DNA of 64,000 nucleotides from Dehalococcoidia bacterium (lineage in GTDB: Bacteria > Chloroflexota > Dehalococcoidia > Plut-88900). The notes under the pieces are model-generated. The model was given only the letters and a program-made list of their open reading frames with translations, was not told the DNA's origin and did not search any database. Below, piece after piece: positions 8,337-51,522 of the stretch (within the stretch, counting starts at the first letter, position 1; the number at the start of each line of letters is the position of its first letter). The position numbers were made by a program, and so were the translations under genes. The stretch is from the NCBI GenBank assembly GCA_965207225.1, contig CBDBLV010000002.1:236160-300159 (forward strand), given 5' to 3'.

Positions 8337-9320
8337 ATGCCAGACGTTCACCCCATGCCCGACAAATCAACCGCTTTCTCCCTCTATGAAGGCATGGTCA
8401 CCATCCGCGAATTCGAAGAACGCGCCCGCCGCGAGGGAGACGCCGGAAAACCCGTGGGCGGTATCCACTCCTCCGTCGGCCAGGAAGCCGTTGCCGTCGG
8501 CATCTGCCGCTATCTTCGTGACGACGACTACGTTCTAGGCAATCACAGGAGCCATCACCATTGCCTCGCCAAGGGTGTCGACATGAAGGAGATGATGGCC
8601 GAGCTCATGGGCAAGGCCACCGGCACCAATAAGGGCAAGGGCGGTACAATGCACATCGCCGACAAGAACGTCGGTATGCTAGGCGCCAACGGAGTAATCG
8701 GCTCCAACGTCCCCGTAGCCGCCGGAGCGGCCCTTAGTGCCAAGATCCGAGGCACCGACCAGGTAGCCGTCGTTTTCTTCGGCGACGGCGGCGCCAACCA
8801 GGGCGCCCTCCACGAGACCCTCAACCTCGCCGCCATCTGGAATCTCGGCGTCATTTTCGTCTGCGAAAACAACCGCTATGCAGAGTCCACCCCCGTGGAA
8901 TACTCCCTCGCCGGTGGCTCCATCGCCAACCGGGCCTCGGCTTACGGGATAGTCGGGGAGACCGTTGACGGCCAGGACGTTCTCGATGTCTCGACGGCAA
9001 TGGAAAGGGCGGTCCATAGGGCCCGGGCAGGTGAAGGCCCCTCCATCATTGAGGCCAAGACCTACCGTTACTACGGCCACCACGGCGCCGACGACCCCCT
9101 GCGCTACCGCACGAGAGAAGAGGAAGAGTTTTACCGCAATCGGGACTGCATAGCCAATTTCAAGACTCGAATTATCGAAGAAGAACTGGGTACCGGCGAA
9201 GAGCTCCAGGAAATCGATGCCTCGATATTGGGGGCACTGGACGAGGCTGTGAAGTTCGCCGACGAAAGCCCCTGGCCCGACCCCGATGAGCTCGTCGCCG
9301 ACGTTTATGTCAATTACTAG
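8337..9320 (+). CDS. TPP-dependent 2-oxoacid (pyruvate/acetoin-type) dehydrogenase E1 alpha subunit
   Basis: 327 aa. TPP-binding region GDGGANQG...NNRYA; typical E1 alpha length and order. Confidence 0.9.
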   Translation: MPDVHPMPDKSTAFSLYEGMVTIREFEERARREGDAGKPVGGIHSSVGQEAVAVGICRYLRDDDYVLGNHRSHHHCLAKGVDMKEMMAELMGKATGTNKGKGGTMHIADKNVGMLGANGVIGSNVPVAAGAALSAKIRGTDQVAVVFFGDGGANQGALHETLNLAAIWNLGVIFVCENNRYAESTPVEYSLAGGSIANRASAYGIVGETVDGQDVLDVSTAMERAVHRARAGEGPSIIEAKTYRYYGHHGADDPLRYRTREEEEFYRNRDCIANFKTRIIEEELGTGEELQEIDASILGALDEAVKFADESPWPDPDELVADVYVNY

Positions 9321-9358
9321 AATCCGTCACCAGCCATCTATGCAACCTGGGTAACGCC

Positions 9359-10429
9359 ATGACAACCACCGAATCCAAGGCAACCGAACGCAGCCGCATC
9401 AGCTTCGTCCGGTCCATCAACGAAGCCATCACCCAGGAGATGGAGCGCGACCCCACCGTCATCGTCATGGGCGAAGACGTGGCCGGCGCTCCCGGTAAGA
9501 AGGACCAGGGCTTCGAGGATGCCTGGGGCGGTGTATTCAAGCTCACTAAAGGCCTCATAGGCAAGTTCGGCCCCCAGCGTGTCCTCGATACCCCCATCTC
9601 CGAAGCCGGGTTCATCGGCGCCGGCGTAGGCGCCGCCGCCACCGGCCTCCGACCCATCGTTGAGCTCATGTTCGTCGGTTTTTACGGAGTCTGCGCTGAC
9701 CAGATAACCAACAACGCCGCAAAAATGCACTACATGTTTGGCGGCAAAGTGACCCTTCCCTTGACCATCATCACTAACACCGGCACCGGCGCGGGCGCTG
9801 CCGCCCAGCACTCCGAGACCCTCTACTCCATCTTCACCCACTTCCCCGGTCTCAAGTGTGTCGTCCCTTCCGACGCCTACACCGCCAAGGGCCTCATGAC
9901 CGCCGCTATCCGTGACGACGACCCCGTAATCATCTTTCTCCACAAGCTCCTTCTCGGAAGGACCCGCGCCGGCCTCCGGCCCTCCGAGGAATACGCTGTA
10001 CCTGAAGAGCCCTACATCGTGCCTATAGGTAAGGCCAACGTGGCCCGGGAGGGTGAGGACCTCACCATGATCGGTATCGGCTACACCACCGGCCTCTGCC
10101 TCCAGGCCGCCGACACCCTTCAGCAGCAGGGCGTCAACGCCGAGGTCATAGACCTGCTGTCCCTCTCCCCCATGGACGAGGAGACAATCCTTGAGTCCGT
10201 CAAGAAGACCCGTAGAGCCGTTATTGTCGACGAGGACTACCCGCGTTGTAGCGTCGCATCTGACATATCAGCCCTCATCGCCGAGCAGGCCTTCGACTAC
10301 CTGGACGCCCCACCCAAAAGGGTGACCCCACCCCACTCCCCCGTCCCCTACAGCATCATGCTGGAGCGCCTATTCGCCCCCACCAAAGAGAAAGTCATCG
10401 AGGCCGCATCCGAGGTCCTGGAGGCTTGA
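9359..10429 (+). CDS. 2-oxoacid dehydrogenase E1 beta subunit
   Basis: 356 aa. Transketolase-like pyrimidine-binding and C-terminal domains (VIVMGEDVA..., DTPISEAGFIG). Confidence 0.9.
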   Translation: MTTTESKATERSRISFVRSINEAITQEMERDPTVIVMGEDVAGAPGKKDQGFEDAWGGVFKLTKGLIGKFGPQRVLDTPISEAGFIGAGVGAAATGLRPIVELMFVGFYGVCADQITNNAAKMHYMFGGKVTLPLTIITNTGTGAGAAAQHSETLYSIFTHFPGLKCVVPSDAYTAKGLMTAAIRDDDPVIIFLHKLLLGRTRAGLRPSEEYAVPEEPYIVPIGKANVAREGEDLTMIGIGYTTGLCLQAADTLQQQGVNAEVIDLLSLSPMDEETILESVKKTRRAVIVDEDYPRCSVASDISALIAEQAFDYLDAPPKRVTPPHSPVPYSIMLERLFAPTKEKVIEAASEVLEA

Positions 10430-17469: not shown

Positions 17470-17965
17470 CCCCTCTCTGTCATCCCGCTTCCGACCGGGA
17501 GTTCACCCTATCCTTTTTCGTCATTCCCGACTCCGATCGGGAATCCATCCCGCGGGGCGAGGGTTCCGTTCGCCCTGAGCAAAGTCGAAGGGTCGACCGA
17601 ACGGAATGGGGTGGTGCCCGGTTCCCGTAGGGGCGACCGGCGGGTCGCCCTCCCCGGTCCGGGGCCGCTCGTGCTGAGACCCTCGAAGTATGAGCGAGAG
17701 GCGGCCCACGCCTTGCCAACCCGTCTCATCCCTCCATCACCAACCACCCTTTCTCACCTTCCCATTCCGATGCCCCGCGAGGAATCTGGGGCTGGCAGGA
17801 GGCTGGCCCTCTCCCCCGAGCAGTGGGGCCGCTCACCCTGAGCGACGAGTCGAAGGGTCGAGCGGGGAGGGGTGGCCCAAGCCTCTCCAAACCATCACCT
17901 CAGTCTGCCGTCAACCCACACCCCTCACTGTCATTCCGATGCCCCGCGATGAATCTAGGACTTGC
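17470..17965. repeat. cluster of REP-like hairpin modules (families F1 and F2)
   Basis: F1 is GTCATTCC(C)GA-loop-TCGG(G)AATC at about 17484-17500, 17524-17543, 17763-17786 and 17929-17955. F2 is GGCCGCTC..CTGAGC..GTCGAAGG..GAGCGG nested hairpins at 17564-17606, 17660-17712 and 17826-17878. An extra hairpin GGGCGACC/GGTCGCCC lies at 17631-17650. Confidence 0.8.
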
Positions 17966-18000: not shown

Positions 18001-18145
18001 CCCCAGTACTGAACTAGAGGGCTACGTGGGTGCGCAGCACCCACGTAGCCCTCTGTTCTTCTTCCCCCTCTCCCTTAAAGGCCCTAAGAGCCTGCCCCGA
18101 GTCCCTCGAGGGGGAGAGGGGGATCAAGGGGGTGAGGGTTCCCCC
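18001..18145 (+). repeat. composite repeat F3, copy A1 (terminator-like hairpin plus conserved CCCCCTCTCCC...GGGAGAGGGGG module)
   Basis: CCAGTACTGAACTAG, then a perfect 18-bp hairpin at 18016-18054 (AGAGGGCTACGTGGGTGC / GCACCCACGTAGCCCTCT), then TGTTCTTCTT, then CCCCCTCTCCCTTAAAGGCCCTAAGAGCCTGCCCCGAG..GGGGAGAGGGGGATCAAGGGGGTGAGGGTTCCC. Confidence 0.85.
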
Positions 18146-18186: not shown

Positions 18187-18215
18187 TTGCCCTACCTGAA
18201 CCCCCGTGCTATACT
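18187..18215 (+). promoter_or_regulatory. extended -10 promoter P1 driving element X
   Basis: TTGCCC, 17-nt spacer ending in TGc, TATACT. The block CCCGTGCTATACT matches the blocks before rpsO (CTCTGTGCTATACT) and purA (CCCGTGTTATACT). Confidence 0.5.
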
Positions 18216-18470
18216 ACGCCCCAGGCCGCCGACCTCACTCCTCGGCGACCATCACAATGCAGGATCAAAGGAGTCCCATGAGCCGCACCGGCCTACATAG
18301 GCCCCGTCTCAGCCGAGCAGCATCCCGCCGCCCGGCCCCCGGCACGCGCCTCCTCCCAGGCTCCTTTCTCTTTCCACACCCCGTCCTGCACCCCAACACT
18401 CACTACAAGCGCTGCCCAAAGGCCCAACGTCTCGGCCTTCGCAGCGATCAATCACCGCCCCGCCCCATGC

Positions 18471-18882
18471 AAGGAAGGTCCCCGGACAAATCACGGCACG
18501 TCCTATTCAAGGGCCGTTGCCAGGTGCGCGCCCCACTCATAGGGCGCAACGGTTTCGCCCCGTCAGGCGACGCTAAGGAGCACGGTGTAATGTTGCTCCA
18601 TCGGGCCATCGCGCCCTTCTTGGATTCCACCGTCGTCACCATCGGCAAGTTCCGGTCTACGAACGGCGGTCACGGGTCCATGCTCTCACCCCTTGGGGTG
18701 CTAGAGCGCTTCCGGTGGTCGAGGCTGCCCCAGAGCGAGAGTTTCTCGCGTCTCGTCCACATCCCCTCGGAAGTGTGGGGCTGTCGCAGGGTCGACGCTG
18801 GTGTGGACCGTCCCCAGGGGCAGACACCCCGCATCGGTACAGGCGTCGCCGACATCCTGCGCAAACCGTCCGGGACCTTCCT
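18471..18882 (+). ncRNA. candidate structured RNA X (unknown class), closed by a 15-bp long-range helix
   Basis: AAGGAAGGTCCCCGGAC (18471-18487) pairs with GTCCGGGACCTTCCT (18868-18882), with one bulged C. No credible ORF. A promoter lies upstream and a terminator-like hairpin downstream. Paralogous architecture at 39516-39900 on the minus strand. Confidence 0.3.
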
Positions 18883-18898
18883 CCCCCTCCCCCGACTT

Positions 18899-19258
18899 GC
18901 CATGTCATCCCGAGGCCCCGCGAGGGATCTCAAGGGCCCGTCTCAAGACGTGGCATTCACCACCGTTCACCCCCATCCAACTTCAGGGAGTGTAAGGGGT
19001 GCAGCTTCCCGTACCCTGGAGGAATGGGCTGGCATGAGGCTGATGCCCTCCCCTCCCACCAGTACCAACCCCCGATTTGCTATGTCATCCCGAGGCCCCG
19101 CGAGGGATCTCAAGCGCCCGCCTCAAGACATGGCATTCACCGCCGTTCACCCCCATCCAACTTCAGGGAATGTAAGGGGTACAGCCTCCCGTACCCTGAA
19201 GGAATGGGCTGGGATGAGGCTGATGTCCTCACCTCCTACCAGAACCAAACTAGGGGCA
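18899..19258 (+). repeat. tandem direct duplication, two units of about 180 bp
   Basis: Units 18899-19078 and 19079-19258 are roughly 90% identical by eye, with scattered transition differences. Each starts with an F1-type hairpin ATCCCGAGGCCCCGCGAGGGAT. Confidence 0.9.
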
Positions 19259-19382
19259 AGCGCCTGTGCCAGGGCACAGGCGCTTGCCCCTGTTTTTCCT
19301 TCCCTCTCTCCCTTAAAGGCCCTGAGAGCCTGCCCCGAGTCCCTCGAGGGGGAGAGCAGGATAAAGAGGGTTAGGGTTCCCC
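19239..19382 (+). repeat. composite repeat F3, copy A2
   Basis: Same flanks as A1, but the hairpin has a different sequence: AGGGGCAAGCGCCTGTGCC / GGCACAGGCGCTTGCCCCT (19252-19291), followed by GTTTTTCC. Confidence 0.85.
19252..19299 (+). terminator. terminator-like hairpin inside F3 copy A2 (probable end of the P1 transcript)
   Basis: Perfect 19-bp GC-rich stem followed by TGTTTTTCC. Confidence 0.45.
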
Positions 19383-19449
19383 TCTCGTTCCTTAAACAAT
19401 CAAAGGCGTGCCTGAAACCGGAAAACAATCAAAAGCCCGCCCCCTCCCC

Positions 19450-19545
19450 TTCGTCATTCCCGACCCCGATCGGGAACCCACCCCCGGGGGCTGGGCCGCT
19501 CGTGCTGAGGCTCTCGAAGTACGAGCGGAGGGGTGGCCCACACCC
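19450..19545 (+). repeat. F1 plus F2 hairpin pair
   Basis: GTCATTCCCGACCCCGATCGGGAACCC, then GGGCCGCTCGTGCTGAGGCTCTCGAAGTACGAGCGGAGGGGTGGCCC. Close copy of 17520-17712. Confidence 0.8.
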
Positions 19546-19624
19546 GACCGTCACGTCTCGCTGGTCATCCTCGCCCACCCCATGCCGTCGTCTCCCCCAC
19601 AGCGCCACGCGAAATCCCCCAAAA

Positions 19625-19682
19625 CCCCTTTAGGCGTCGTTCAATCAAACCAGCCACGAATTCAATCAACGTTCAATCAAAA
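19625..19682 (+). repeat. F4 module: CCCCTTTAGGCGTC plus phased TTCAATCAA repeats
   Basis: TTCAATCAA at 19640, 19661 and 19672 (spacings of 21 and 11 bp). An inverted copy lies at 39085-39168. Confidence 0.8.
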
Positions 19683-32099: not shown

Positions 32100-32136
32100 C
32101 TCGCGTTGGGGCGGAACACTGCCCCCGTGTTATACT
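32100..32136 (+). promoter_or_regulatory. extended -10 promoter of purA
   Basis: CCCCCGTGtTATACT (-10 at 32131-32136, TG at 32128-32129). Weak -35. Confidence 0.4.
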
Positions 32137-39026: not shown

Positions 39027-39055
39027 AAAATCTATACCTCTAATTTCCGTGGCGG

Positions 39056-39085
39056 AGTATAGCACAGAGGGGGCGCGGATGCCAC
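39056..39085 (-). promoter_or_regulatory. extended -10 promoter of rpsO-pnp
   Basis: Minus strand CCCTCTGTGcTATACTCCGCC, with the -10 at 39056-39061. Weak -35 (TGGCAT). Confidence 0.45.
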
Positions 39086-39168
39086 AGGGTGTTGCGGATT
39101 TTGATTGAACGTTGATTGAACATTGATTGAACTCGTAGCTGTTTTGATTGAATGACGCCTAAAGGGGA
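39085..39168 (-). repeat. F4 module (inverted copy): four TTCAATCAA units plus CCCCTTTAGGCGTC
   Basis: Plus-strand TTGATTGAA at 39101, 39112 and 39123 (11-bp phasing) and at 39144. About 88% identical to the reverse complement of 19625-19682. Confidence 0.8.
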
Positions 39169-39298
39169 AAACGGAGGGGAACCCTCTCCCCCTCGATCCC
39201 CCTCTCCCTTAGGGCCATTGAGGGAGAGGGGGAGGAGTAAACAGAGGGACGTGCGTGCGCGGGGCGCACGCACGTCCCTCTAGTTTGTACTCGGGGGG
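39169..39298 (-). repeat. composite repeat F3, copy B1
   Basis: Perfect 18-bp hairpin at 39243-39281 (AGAGGGACGTGCGTGCGC / GCGCACGCACGTCCCTCT), flanked by CTAGTTTGTACTCGGGG and the GGGAGAGGGGG/CCCCCTCTCCC module (short form). Confidence 0.85.
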
Positions 39299-39344
39299 AG
39301 AGGAGAACAGCGCCGACCTCTGCCTCTAGTTCAGTACTGGGTGG
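39299..39344 (-). repeat. truncated F3 fragment (B1b)
   Basis: GCCTCTAGTTCAGTACTGGG flank is present, but only half of a hairpin. Confidence 0.6.
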
Positions 39345-39515: not shown

Positions 39516-39900
39516 GGCGATGGAAGGTCCGGGACTCGGATGCAGGACCTCGATGGCACCTACGCCGACGCTGGTGGCATCGGCGGTTGTCCTGCCTTTC
39601 CCTTCACGCATGCCTTGGGAGACTTGCCGCTGTCGAGGGCGTCTCTGCGTGGGGACATCCGCTCTCTGCATCAGCGCTCGACCGCTGTACGGGACGGCAT
39701 ATCGGCTCGAGGCCGCCGTGGGCGGAAGGAGCCGCATAAGGGCGCTAAGGCCCTGCATAACGAGTCAGAGGACTCGCGGAATTCCTCGACGAGGGTAAAG
39801 TCGGCGAGGCGTATACGCCCGAGTAAGGGGCGTCGTATCGGCAAGGGCGTCGTTATAGAGAGGCCTGCTGCCGCATAGAGTCGATGGACCATCCATCGCC
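39516..39900 (-). ncRNA. candidate structured RNA Y, paralogous in architecture to X
   Basis: Long-range helix GGCGATGGAAGGTCC (39516-39530) / GGACCATCCATCGCC (39886-39900), extended by GACTC (39533-39537) / GAGTC (39878-39882). Inner helix GCAGGAC (39542-39548) / GTCCTGC (39589-39595). Promoter P2 lies upstream on the minus strand. Confidence 0.3.
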
Positions 39901-40051
39901 TGGTGGGTCAGGGAAGGGACACGAGACTTGATGGGATGAGGAGATGGCGTCCCCGACGTCTCGGGGGCGGTGCCTTGGGTCGGGTCTCGGGGGCTTCCCT
40001 GGGTTTTTGGTTCCTCCTTGTGTTACTGAATATCAGTTCGAACTGCAAAAC

Positions 40052-40079
40052 AGTTTAGCACGGGTGTAATAGAAGTCAA
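40052..40079 (-). promoter_or_regulatory. extended -10 promoter P2 driving element Y
   Basis: Minus strand TTGACT (40074-40079), 16-nt spacer ending in TGc, TAAACT (40052-40057). Confidence 0.5.
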
Positions 40080-40119: not shown

Positions 40120-40267
40120 CCCCAGGGAACCCTCTCCCTCTTTATCCCCCTCTCCCCCGTATCGGGGTACGGGGCAGGCTCTTAGGGCCTATAAGGGAGA
40201 GGGGGAGAAAAAACAGAGGCATGCACCTGCGCCTCTGCGCAGGTGCATGCCTCTAGTTTAGTACTGG
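40120..40267 (-). repeat. composite repeat F3, copy B2
   Basis: Perfect 18-bp hairpin at 40215-40254 (AGAGGCATGCACCTGCGC / GCGCAGGTGCATGCCTCT). On the minus strand it is followed by GTTTTTTCT. The long-form conserved module carries an inner hairpin CCCCGTA/TACGGGG. Confidence 0.85.
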
Positions 40268-40282: not shown

Positions 40283-40397
40283 CCATCCTCACCACCTGCT
40301 CCCCCATACCTTAGGGCCATTGAAGGAGAAGGGGAGAGAAGCGTAGAGGCATAGGCATGTGCGTTGCACCCACGTCTGCCTCTAGTTCAGCACTGGG
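40283..40397 (-). repeat. composite repeat F3, copy B3 (degenerate hairpin)
   Basis: The arms at 40345-40362 and 40366-40383 pair at only 13 of 18 positions. One arm resembles the A1 hairpin and the other resembles B2. Confidence 0.7.
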
Positions 40398-40665
40398 GGG
40401 AGGGGGGTTGTGATACGAATAGGACTACAGGAGCTCAGCAATCGGGGGAGATGATTGAATATTTTAAGGGGTTGGGAGCCGTATGACTTCAGGGAGACCA
40501 CGCATCGGAGTGATCCGAGGGCAGATCCGGCACTCCTGCGTGAATAGTCCGGTCTCCCTTGCAATCACAATCGCAATCCCCCTACAATGCCTCAATCCCA
40601 CGAAGCTAACGCCCCCCTCTGCCTTTACACTCTACAAGGCGTTAAATATAATTGAATTCAGGCTT

Positions 40666-51176: not shown

Positions 51177-51252
51177 GCCCGAGTGGCGCAATGGCAGCGC
51201 AGCCGATTTGTAATCGGCAGGTTGGCGGGTTCGAATCCCCTCTCGGGCTCCA
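51177..51252 (+). tRNA. tRNA-Thr (anticodon TGT), CCA encoded
   Basis: Hand-folded cloverleaf. Acceptor GCCCGAG/CTCGGGC, D stem GCGC/GCGC, anticodon stem GCCGA/TCGGC, loop TTTGTAA. The T stem GCGGG/CCCCT has one C-C mismatch and one G-U pair. Confidence 0.8.
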
Positions 51253-51320
51253 GCTAACCAACCCGGTGCTCGGAATCAATCATTCATTAATTTATCACCA
51301 CACAGTTCGAAGGGACTTTT

Positions 51321-51406
51321 GGAGGGGTGGGTGAGTGGTTAAAACCGGCGGTCTGTAAAATCGCTGCCGAAAGGCTACGCAGGTTCGAATCCTGCCCCCT
51401 CCACCA
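51321..51406 (+). tRNA. tRNA-Tyr (anticodon GTA), long variable arm, CCA encoded
   Basis: Acceptor GGAGGGG/CCCCTCC, anticodon loop CTGTAAA, T arm GCAGG-TTCGAAT-CCTGC. Confidence 0.92.
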
Positions 51407-51447
51407 TCAAAACAGCCTATAATATCGTGAAAGGAACAATTCAGTAG

Positions 51448-51522
51448 GCCCACATAGCTCAGTGGCAGAGCACGTTCTTGGTAAGAACGGGGTCACCGGT
51501 TCAAATCCGGTTGTGGGCTCCA
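51448..51522 (+). tRNA. tRNA-Thr (anticodon GGT), CCA encoded
   Basis: Acceptor GCCCACA/TGTGGGC, D arm GCTC-AGTGGCA-GAGC, anticodon arm CGTTC-TTGGTAA-GAACG, T arm ACCGG-TTCAAAT-CCGGT. Confidence 0.93.

Follow-up and report, generated by a model that had tools for sequence, protein, structure and literature searches.

Organization of the X and Y loci

The window analysed here, a 64,000-nt stretch from the genome of a Dehalococcoidia bacterium (GenBank contig CBDBLV010000002.1), contains two related intergenic elements, X on the forward strand and Y on the reverse strand, each with a predicted promoter, a leader and a large domain closed by a long-range helix. Element X extends from 18187 to about 18890, and its open reading frame (ORF) and tail continue to about 19633. 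The putative sigma-70-type promoter of X (18187..18215, +) consists of the -35 hexamer TTGCCC (18187-18192), a 17-nt spacer and the -10 hexamer TATACT (18210-18215), which ends an extended -10 motif at 18215, read from the sequence as TGCTATACT. The promoter lies where the original prediction, made by reading the window, had placed it, and it looks real: the same promoter was found in loci L009, L017, L037, L048 and L058, and the hexamers were kept in 20 of 20 copies of the Y type. The block CCCGTGCTATACT of this promoter, which had been noticed also before rpsO and purA, was identified at 39051-39067 (minus strand) and at 32122-32136.

Downstream of the promoter, the motif AGGAGTCCCATGAGYCGCA comprises the Shine-Dalgarno (SD) sequence AAAGGAG (18267-18273, +) and the ATG start codon (18278-18280, +) of an ORF of 451 codons plus stop (18278..19633, +), which spans the structured domain, two 180-nt repeats, a terminator hairpin and modules resembling repetitive extragenic palindromic (REP) sequences. 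The segment 18386..18890 (+) is homologous to a part of the nuclease domain of the phage terminase large subunit (TerL), at about amino acids (aa) 275-445 of TerL of Bacillus phage vB_BboS-125. The 5′ strand of the closing helix, AAGGAAGGTCCCCGGAC (18471..18487, +), pairs with the 3′ strand, GTCCGGGACCTTCCT (18868..18882, +), into the 15 bp that had been proposed from the sequence, with one bulged C. The 3′ strand doubles as the 3′ boundary of the repeated unit, and similarity among X-type copies stops at +10 past this arm. The most conserved block, CATCGGTACAGGCGTCGCCGACATCCTGCGCAAACCGTCCGGGACCTTCC (18832..18881, +), was kept from a TerL pseudogene, described below, through X to Y, and is constrained at the nucleotide level.

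Past the unit, a 180-nt (60-codon) module is present in two tandem copies (18893..19252, +), in frame with the X ORF and each with a GTCATCCCGAGGCCCCGCGAGGGATC hairpin. There is one copy of this module in L009 and two in L037, and it also follows the X-type copies L017, L037, L048 and L058. Hairpins of the form GTCATTCC..GGAATC, akin to that of the module, were seen at 17520, 17930, 19453 and 39427. A strong terminator-like hairpin with a T-run (19253..19297, +) is located inside the X ORF; if this site is used, the X mRNA would have no in-frame stop. The ORF is followed by an array of TTCAATCAA direct repeats (19639..19680, +), part of a 65-nt module that accompanies X and Y units. Element X is found at the same site in L009, where the copy has an internal 162-nt tandem duplication.

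Element Y has the layout that had been described for it, with promoter, closing helix and shared 3′ block all present. The promoter, TTGACT-N16-TGcTAAACT (40052..40079, -), was read from the sequence, and the leader contains the SD-like AAGGAGG (40013..40019, -) with no start codon after it; Y carries AGG where X-type copies have ATG. In the helix-closed domain (39516..39900, -), the 5′ strand GGCGATGGATGGTCC (39900-39886) pairs with the 3′ strand GGACCTTCCATCGCC (39530-39516) with one U·U mismatch. A downstream TTCAATCAA direct-repeat array (39101..39152, -) forms the rpsO-proximal end of a block absent from locus L007 of a relative.

The 3′ block TCCTGC-N6/7-GTCCSGGACCTTCC is exact in both elements, the exact blocks common to X and Y being GTCCSGGACCTTCC and GGGCCWTMGCGCCCTT. 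Comparison of X with Y by blastn gave nothing beyond such short blocks, and the homology surfaced only with profiles: a Y-type profile matched X over the full helix-closed domain (18471-18881, nhmmer E=5e-22). X and Y are paralogous over this whole domain, as had been supposed, and the accompanying view that their interiors are otherwise diverged is overstated, as the profile search aligns the two end to end. According to the same profile, the window contains only these two copies.

A multi-copy family in Dehalococcoidia

The 20-base 3′ motif TCCTGC-N6/7-GTCCSGGACCTTCC was scanned against one genome per species, and 61 loci were obtained, 44 of which are family copies in nine Dehalococcoidia metagenome-assembled genomes (MAGs), with 2-10 copies per genome. 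The remaining 17 loci comprise 15 in unrelated taxa, taken as chance, and two more, L052 (Chloroflexi MAG) and L053 (Dehalococcoidia MAG), where coding sequence seems to match by chance. With the window and L009 added to the nine MAGs, the family has at least 46 copies, and X, which had been regarded as one of two elements, belongs to this larger set. The family is new, not described before, and was found in a group of soil Dehalococcoidia.

Two subfamilies, X-type and Y-type, were recognized, together with hybrids (L026/L047 and L034/L041) that are intermediate between them; in L026/L047, an X-type SD-ATG leader stands in place of the Y-type leader. Copies are 66-96% identical, or 66-92% when compared with the window copies, and similarity extends from the promoter or transcription start site to +10 (X-type) or +60-120 (Y-type). 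Promoter hexamers are conserved and spacers are variable: the pattern TTGAC.-N16-18-TAnnnT is present in 20/20 Y-type copies and TTGMMN-N16-18-TAnnnT in 14/23 X-type copies, in both cases at a fixed distance from the leader motif. The leader AAGGAGGAAC..CCCAGGGAAGCCC is conserved in typical Y-type copies, as is the SD and ATG motif AGGAGTCCCATGAGYCGCA in 23 of 26 X-type copies. The 5′ partner of the 3′ motif, GGAnGGTCC, was located 296-413 nt upstream in every Y-type copy and 409-774 nt upstream in the X-type copies where the strict motif was found; others have a variant arm, e.g. GGAAGGTTCC.

Conserved RNA structure

RNAfold predicts the closing helix in X and in Y, and the folding energies compared with dinucleotide shuffles gave z = -3.8 (X) and -6.1 (Y). 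The helix is present in nearly all of the 46 copies, with compensating differences between the subfamilies. Consensus folds were obtained by RNAalifold for 18 Y-type domains (alignment A3) and 12 X-type domains (A5), using MAFFT alignments that are not structure-aware and sequences that are related to each other. The Y-type fold has 80 pairs, with 98.2% of cells forming standard pairs and 13 pairs showing double changes, a number reached by none of 500 shuffles, while slid controls gave 1-5. For the X-type, 100 pairs were predicted, eight of them with double changes, including CACCCC/GGGGUG vs CAUAU/GUAUG. The 15 pairs of the X-type closing helix (A5 columns 9-24 with 574-588) are nearly invariant; another of the double changes is a swap from U-A to A-U at the outer pair.

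Whole hairpins have been exchanged for sequences of the same shape, e.g. CGAGUC..GACUCG vs CCCGG..CCGGG. Moreover, many Y-type pairs swap A-U or G-C for G·U, exchanges that would leave A·C mismatches in the complement; the structure therefore belongs to the strand transcribed from the promoter. Together, the compensatory and G·U changes demonstrate that X and Y contain a conserved, strand-specific fold, in line with the structured element of the original prediction. The inner helix once proposed between GCAGGGT and ACATCCTGC is weak: the GCAGGGT strand is replaced by GCAGAAT in L009 and by GCAAAGC in most of the remaining X-type sequences in A5, and RNAalifold favours other partners for TCCTGC.

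The RNA class had not been recognized on reading the sequence, and no Rfam 15 family matches X or Y. At the gathering threshold, the whole window returned only three tRNAs, and at E<=10 the X and Y loci gave only spurious miRNA-like matches on flanking terminator and REP hairpins. A three-tRNA cluster is located at 51177-51519 (+).

An open frame without amino-acid constraint

It had been stated that no frame of X gives a believable protein, whereas X has the SD and ATG described above and an ORF to 19633 that is kept open in the subfamily. The frame from ATG is stop-free in 22 of 23 X-type copies across the 594-1,074 nt up to the 3′ arm, when the other two frames contain 1-9 stops. Length differences between ATG and the 3′ arm are all multiples of three (at least 16 distinct changes), and the tandem repeats of 162, 96 and 180 nt (54, 32 and 60 codons) are multiples of three as well. 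A neutral simulation with the observed substitution spectrum put the chance of a lineage remaining without a stop at only 0.3 when its divergence is 10%. In the Y-type, every frame is interrupted by stops and the length is not constrained modulo 3.

Despite the open frame, the amino-acid sequence of the X ORF is not constrained. Substitutions are flat over codon positions (1:2:3 = 755:869:811), the pairwise ratio of nonsynonymous to synonymous changes (dN/dS) is about 0.5-1.3, and none of the 15-codon windows shows strong constraint. The last 15-codon window has a synonymous difference (pS) of 0.05 vs 0.13-0.31 elsewhere, a sign of constraint on the nucleotide sequence of the 3′ block. The stop codon is not conserved: the X-type ORFs end 141 to >698 nt past the unit, in unrelated flank, and in 5/6 related (not independent) copies of the window lineage the ORF passes the first terminator-like site. 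GC content at second codon positions is 0.60, vs about 0.44 in real genes. X is an mRNA-like unit as well, with its SD-ATG and frame under selection, and the earlier description as a structured RNA rather than a coding sequence is too simple.

The alternative that the product is a fast-evolving protein, basic, Arg/Pro/Ser-rich and largely disordered, derived from the TerL nuclease domain, with the RNA structure incidental or regulatory and the Y-type copies dead or RNA-only offshoots, draws on the same frame: a conserved start, an ORF open in 22/23 copies, indels of 3n only and repeats that stay in frame. In addition, searches of 1.84 billion representative proteins with HMMER returned 87 clusters of 84-492-aa “proteins”, many of which start at residue 1 of both query and protein, the same start having been chosen by gene callers in metagenomic relatives, and less decayed family members retain the motifs YVAGIDLAGES and VVVDATGIGAGV, presumably TerL nuclease motifs. 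Public gene calls in L009:5531-7672 divide the X region into two hypothetical proteins of 381 and 314 aa with no Pfam match. Against a protein stand the dN/dS values along the whole ORF and a C-terminus that is set by the flank, which in the window includes a terminator hairpin and REP modules. The GC2 and composition are atypical of real genes, and the Y-type copies persist with promoter and fold but with no frame. The X ORF has no match in Pfam, NCBIfam or PHROG; searches of these three databases with X and 10 relatives gave nothing except weak TerL PHROG matches on one relative, P0296, and a sequence search of PDB gave chance-level YeaZ matches only. We consider the protein alternative unlikely.

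A second alternative takes up the closing helix, the absence of stops inside the domain, the 3n-only indels and the unconstrained protein sequence, and reads X as a template RNA of a DRT2/neo-like reverse transcriptase (RT), in which rolling-circle copying of the stop-free 3n segment would give a concatemeric, never-ending ORF. In DRT2, the template region is abutted by a basal stem, the in-frame ORF is stop-less and only 3-, 6- and 9-bp insertions are tolerated, and the non-coding RNA (ncRNA) lies directly upstream of its RT under one promoter (PMC11100668). The X-type is similar in its poorly conserved protein sequence and, in part, in its stem-bounded segment, which is stop-free with 3n indels although one X-type subgroup has a helix-to-helix length of 3n+1 and Y-type copies are interrupted by stops in every frame. 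It differs in that no RT gene lies beside any of the 43 loci examined, and the ORF begins about 190 nt upstream of the helix at a normal SD-ATG, outside the stem, and runs out into the flank. Furthermore, at 3-6 times the length of the DRT2 template, the domain is much larger. This alternative is extremely improbable.

Descent from a phage terminase gene

Residues 37-204 of the X ORF match residues 39-210 of P0296 (phmmer E=2e-18). The gene of P0296 is directly upstream of an SPP1-type portal gene, and its PHROG terminase-large-subunit matches are weak (4e-4), when its 199-aa core aligns with proteins annotated as terminases in two Bacillus phages, vB_BboS-125 (33% identity, E=2e-17) and BCD7 (E=6e-10). 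The link of X to TerL is transitive, via P0296, with X itself giving no direct Pfam, PHROG or NCBIfam match, and it refers to ancestry, not to membership among functional TerL proteins. Viral contigs scanned for the TerL-like core yielded no relatives.

At locus L071, aa 49-459 of the vB_BboS-125 TerL align collinearly in three frames, and therefore L071 holds a TerL pseudogene. Regions L071:6250-7460 and 8888-10003 make up a decayed prophage with the TerL pseudogene, REP-like modules and an SPP1-type portal gene. X matches this pseudogene by blastn with 68.6% identity over 277 nt, and X and Y are 68-75% identical to it in DNA over -500..+3. Copies of X- and Y-type also give weak collinear tblastn matches to TerL aa 340-441 (E=0.002-0.07), and less decayed members keep YVAGIDLAGES, DSTVVTIGEL, VVVDATGIGAGVAAFLRK and VVVDATGIGAGV; the first and last of these we take to be typical of TerL nuclease domains.

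The chain from X through P0296 to phage TerL and the DNA identity to the L071 pseudogene establish a TerL origin. X and Y thus stem from an inner piece of TerL (about aa 275-445) that was joined to a promoter and to a leader some 36 codons long. Only this part of TerL is represented in X and Y, and the N-terminal ATPase domain is not present. The L071 region is the nearest thing found to a parent of the family. With regard to a known RNA family or a decayed protein gene, which the original prediction had named as other possible identities, no RNA family was found, and the sequence does derive from a protein gene, phage TerL.

The TerL origin and the near-neutral rates could suggest that the copies are nothing but decaying fragments of a prophage terminase pseudogene. 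However, the copies have their own conserved promoter and leader, more than 40 of them share the same sharp boundaries, the frame has been kept open and the base-pair changes are compensatory. Covariation of pairs, the kept frame and the conserved promoter rule out a plain pseudogene. Each element of the window is also followed by a gene in the same direction, sulfite reductase after X and rpsO after Y, as would be expected of a long cis-acting leader of that gene. Yet the downstream genes vary by copy and are often convergent (L021/L064/L069, L028/L050/L054), terminators are located between X or Y and the next gene, and the rpsO spacer of relatives lacks Y. A leader or attenuator was rejected, since the downstream genes differ among copies and are often convergent. 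Pseudogene and leader are, taken together, very improbable explanations.

Genomic neighbourhood and dispersal

Within about ±3-7 kb of 43 copies, no recurrent neighbour ORF family was found besides the X ORF itself, and no RT, transposase or defence gene recurred at these loci. The neighbours are ordinary metabolic and housekeeping genes; an IS481-like integrase was seen near three loci only and was judged coincidental. Three syntenic groups were recognized, and in each of them X-type copies occupy orthologous loci in three different species. These orthologous copies diverge by 4-19%, vs 11-22% at fourfold-degenerate sites of the flanking genes. The family units are old and have been retained, and their average constraint is weak because the divergence of orthologues is close to that at fourfold sites.

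Y is missing from the 130-350-bp S1-rpsO spacer of relatives in which polynucleotide phosphorylase (PNPase) is 84-97% identical. The nearest relatives of PNPase and of sulfite reductase place the host in Dehalococcoidia/Chloroflexota. The block between S1 and rpsO is 1,479 bp in the window vs 89 bp in L007, where PNPase is 97% identical. In another relative, the contig is broken immediately before rpsO.

The 1.48-kb Y block in place of the 89 bp of L007, the dispersal of many copies between unrelated housekeeping genes, the near-neutral overall divergence and the resemblance of the inverted repeat to a terminal one might be explained by a selfish, non-autonomous composite repeat. X and Y would be the cargo of intergenic blocks (REP/terminator, hairpin and TTCAATCAA array) that spread as DNA, their inverted repeat and hairpins serving mobilization or mere persistence with no benefit to the host. 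The near-invariant 65-nt TTCAATCAA module, which follows 20 of 46 copies in fixed orientation, and the broken contig upstream of rpsO fit this alternative as well. However, the inverted repeat is not at the unit ends: the promoter and a 150-250-nt leader are outside it, and only the 3′ arm is a unit boundary. Copies are not near-identical, no transposase or RT recurs nearby, and X-type copies remain at orthologous loci. No target-site duplication was found at the S1-rpsO junctions, in one filled/empty pair (window vs L007) whose junctions are not clean. DNA mobility would also leave promoter conservation, strand-specific G·U pairing and frame maintenance unexplained. We judge the selfish repeat to be as unlikely as the protein.

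A miniature inverted-repeat transposable element (MITE) had been named at the outset as the reading to adopt if many near-identical, dispersed copies with target-site duplications were met. Many dispersed copies do exist, though not near-identical ones, and the single site examined showed no target-site duplication. A classical MITE does not fit, given these results and the internal position of the inverted repeat.

Repeat modules around the elements

In the 65-nt module AGGCGTCGTTCAATCAAAACAGCTACGAGTTCAATCAATGTTCAATCAACGTTCAATCAAA, 3-4 copies of TTCAATCAA follow each other in direct orientation, and the last three are spaced at 11 bp. The module is nearly invariant by eye and is located 226-758 nt downstream of the 20 units, always in the same orientation. 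The module was seen in the window at 19639-19680 (+) and 39101-39152 (-), and further in L009, L010, L017, L022, L024, L036, L038, L040, L044, L048, L049, L058, L060, L062, L066 and L067. In the window, it adjoins the rpsO promoter and belongs to the block missing from L007. The spacing of the repeats looks like an array of putative protein-binding sites.

A composite repeat consists of (C)CAGTACTGAACTAGAGG, a GC-rich perfect hairpin and a T-run, followed by CCCCCTCTCCCTTAAAGGCCCTAAG..GGGAGAGGGGGATNAAGNGGGNGAGGGTTCCCC. It is present at about 18005-18145 and 19230-19385 (+), and at 39170-39300, 40120-40265 and about 40300-40400 (-). Modules of this terminator-plus-REP-like kind are found on either side of X and Y, occupy the two largest intergenic regions and are the source of all the miRNA-like Rfam noise.

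The insertion site of a mini-hairpin, (A)ACATCCGCC-N3-5-GGCGGAC, varies among family copies. It is found in the leader or within the Y domain, and X-type copies have it, as 27 nt in frame, between the codons of the TerL motif. Examples are L061:2255-2697 and L024:7192-7620, with a counterpart in X at 18810-18830 of the window. The mini-hairpin behaves like a tiny mobile palindrome.

A proposed structured RNA, translated in one subfamily

The explanation we favour, tentatively and with slightly less than even confidence, is that X belongs to a multi-copy family, restricted to one clade, of self-contained transcription units whose product is a structured RNA derived from a phage gene fragment and translated in the X-type. 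At the origin of the family, a fragment of the TerL nuclease domain was fused to a promoter and a short leader. What has been kept in all copies appears RNA-like: a sigma-70 promoter, an SD-like leader and a 300-770-nt domain closed by the 15-bp long-range helix, the domain containing a set of hairpins and the 3′ strand of the helix marking the unit end. Since X-type and Y-type share promoter, leader and a folded domain bounded by the 3′ arm, the folded RNA is probably their common functional product.

In the X-type, the leader still has SD and ATG, and ribosomes would load. Any early stop or frameshift would break the coupling to translation, and the RNA might be truncated or destabilized before the 3′ strand, for example by Rho-type polarity on the C-rich transcript. 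Coupling of this kind could account for a frame that is open exactly through the domain, for 3n indels, and for the conservation of neither amino acids nor stop; the constraint would end exactly at the 3′ arm because a premature stop would harm the RNA before this arm is made. The Y-type has lost the start codon and would be untranslated, and it carries a C/A-rich tail after the helix.

Several observations weigh against this explanation. The L071 pseudogene already has a compensated closing helix (GGTTCC/GGAACC for GGTCC/GGACC; z = -4.7), and part of the fold may have been inherited from before the spread of the family, or the L071 locus may have been converted by family copies. The nearness of orthologue divergence to that of fourfold-degenerate sites implies weak mean constraint. 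The absence of Y from the relative with 97% identical PNPase fits a recent gain or loss of an element that may be dispensable. Internal tandem duplications are tolerated (162 nt in L009 and a 96-nt triplication in L013), which is unusual for a compact tertiary fold. The passage of ribosomes through a functional fold is awkward, and the rationale by Rho-type polarity is conjectural. Transcription, transcript ends and translation are all predicted, transcription from promoter conservation.

A bolder version is distinctly unlikely. The RNA fold of the domesticated TerL fragment would be functional and the X-type frame would be open purely for ribosomes to traverse it, as a stop-less “translated scaffold”. 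Messages lacking a stop might then arise naturally from such units, or the units might, in the manner of neo, supply a reverse transcriptase or defence system encoded elsewhere; given their origin, interference with phages or packaging would be conceivable functions. For the family in general, any phage-related role is guessed from the ancestry.

Comparison with known elements

Large structured bacterial ncRNAs such as OLE, GOLLD, ROOL, HEARO/omega-RNA and raiA were found by comparative genomics. The X/Y family resembles OLE, GOLLD, ROOL, HEARO and raiA in being several hundred nt long and multi-helix with a long-range closing helix, with its own promoter, a narrow range and a function not deducible from the sequence. 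Unlike them, it has no Rfam 15 match, it is present in 2-10 or more copies per genome, it derives from a protein-coding phage gene, and one subfamily has a maintained ORF. Like MITEs, REPINs and Rickettsia palindromic elements, the latter of which can be read through in frame, X and Y are dispersed and multi-copy with an inverted repeat. In contrast to all three, their inverted repeat is internal, the copies have diverged, the one site that was examined showed no target-site duplication, and the units have their own promoter and start codon and are intergenic, not inside host genes.

The hok-type type I toxin mRNAs are likewise translated RNAs with ends locked by a long-range helix, often in multiple chromosomal copies; X differs in having no short hydrophobic toxin ORF, no antisense partner that could be identified, and a longer ORF with a free-running end. 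Phage TerL genes share with X and Y the sequence ancestry, aligned to the nuclease-domain region, and the motifs kept by less decayed members. Unlike TerL, X and Y have only about 170 codons, no ATPase domain and no phage gene neighbours, the motifs of X are changed, and the fragment was fused to a new promoter and leader and amplified. From DRT2, in addition to the points above, the family is set apart by the lack of an associated RT and by its frame-less Y-type copies.

If the family is transcribed as predicted, it would be a clear bacterial case of a phage coding fragment turned into a structured RNA family. Translated and untranslated forms exist side by side, which would open the transition from coding to non-coding to direct study. 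The label given to these units by gene callers, hypothetical proteins of 165-490 aa, is probably misleading. The signature of an open frame with free amino acids and no stop of its own is rare, DRT2/neo being the only comparable case considered, and it points to selection on the act of translation, not on the protein.

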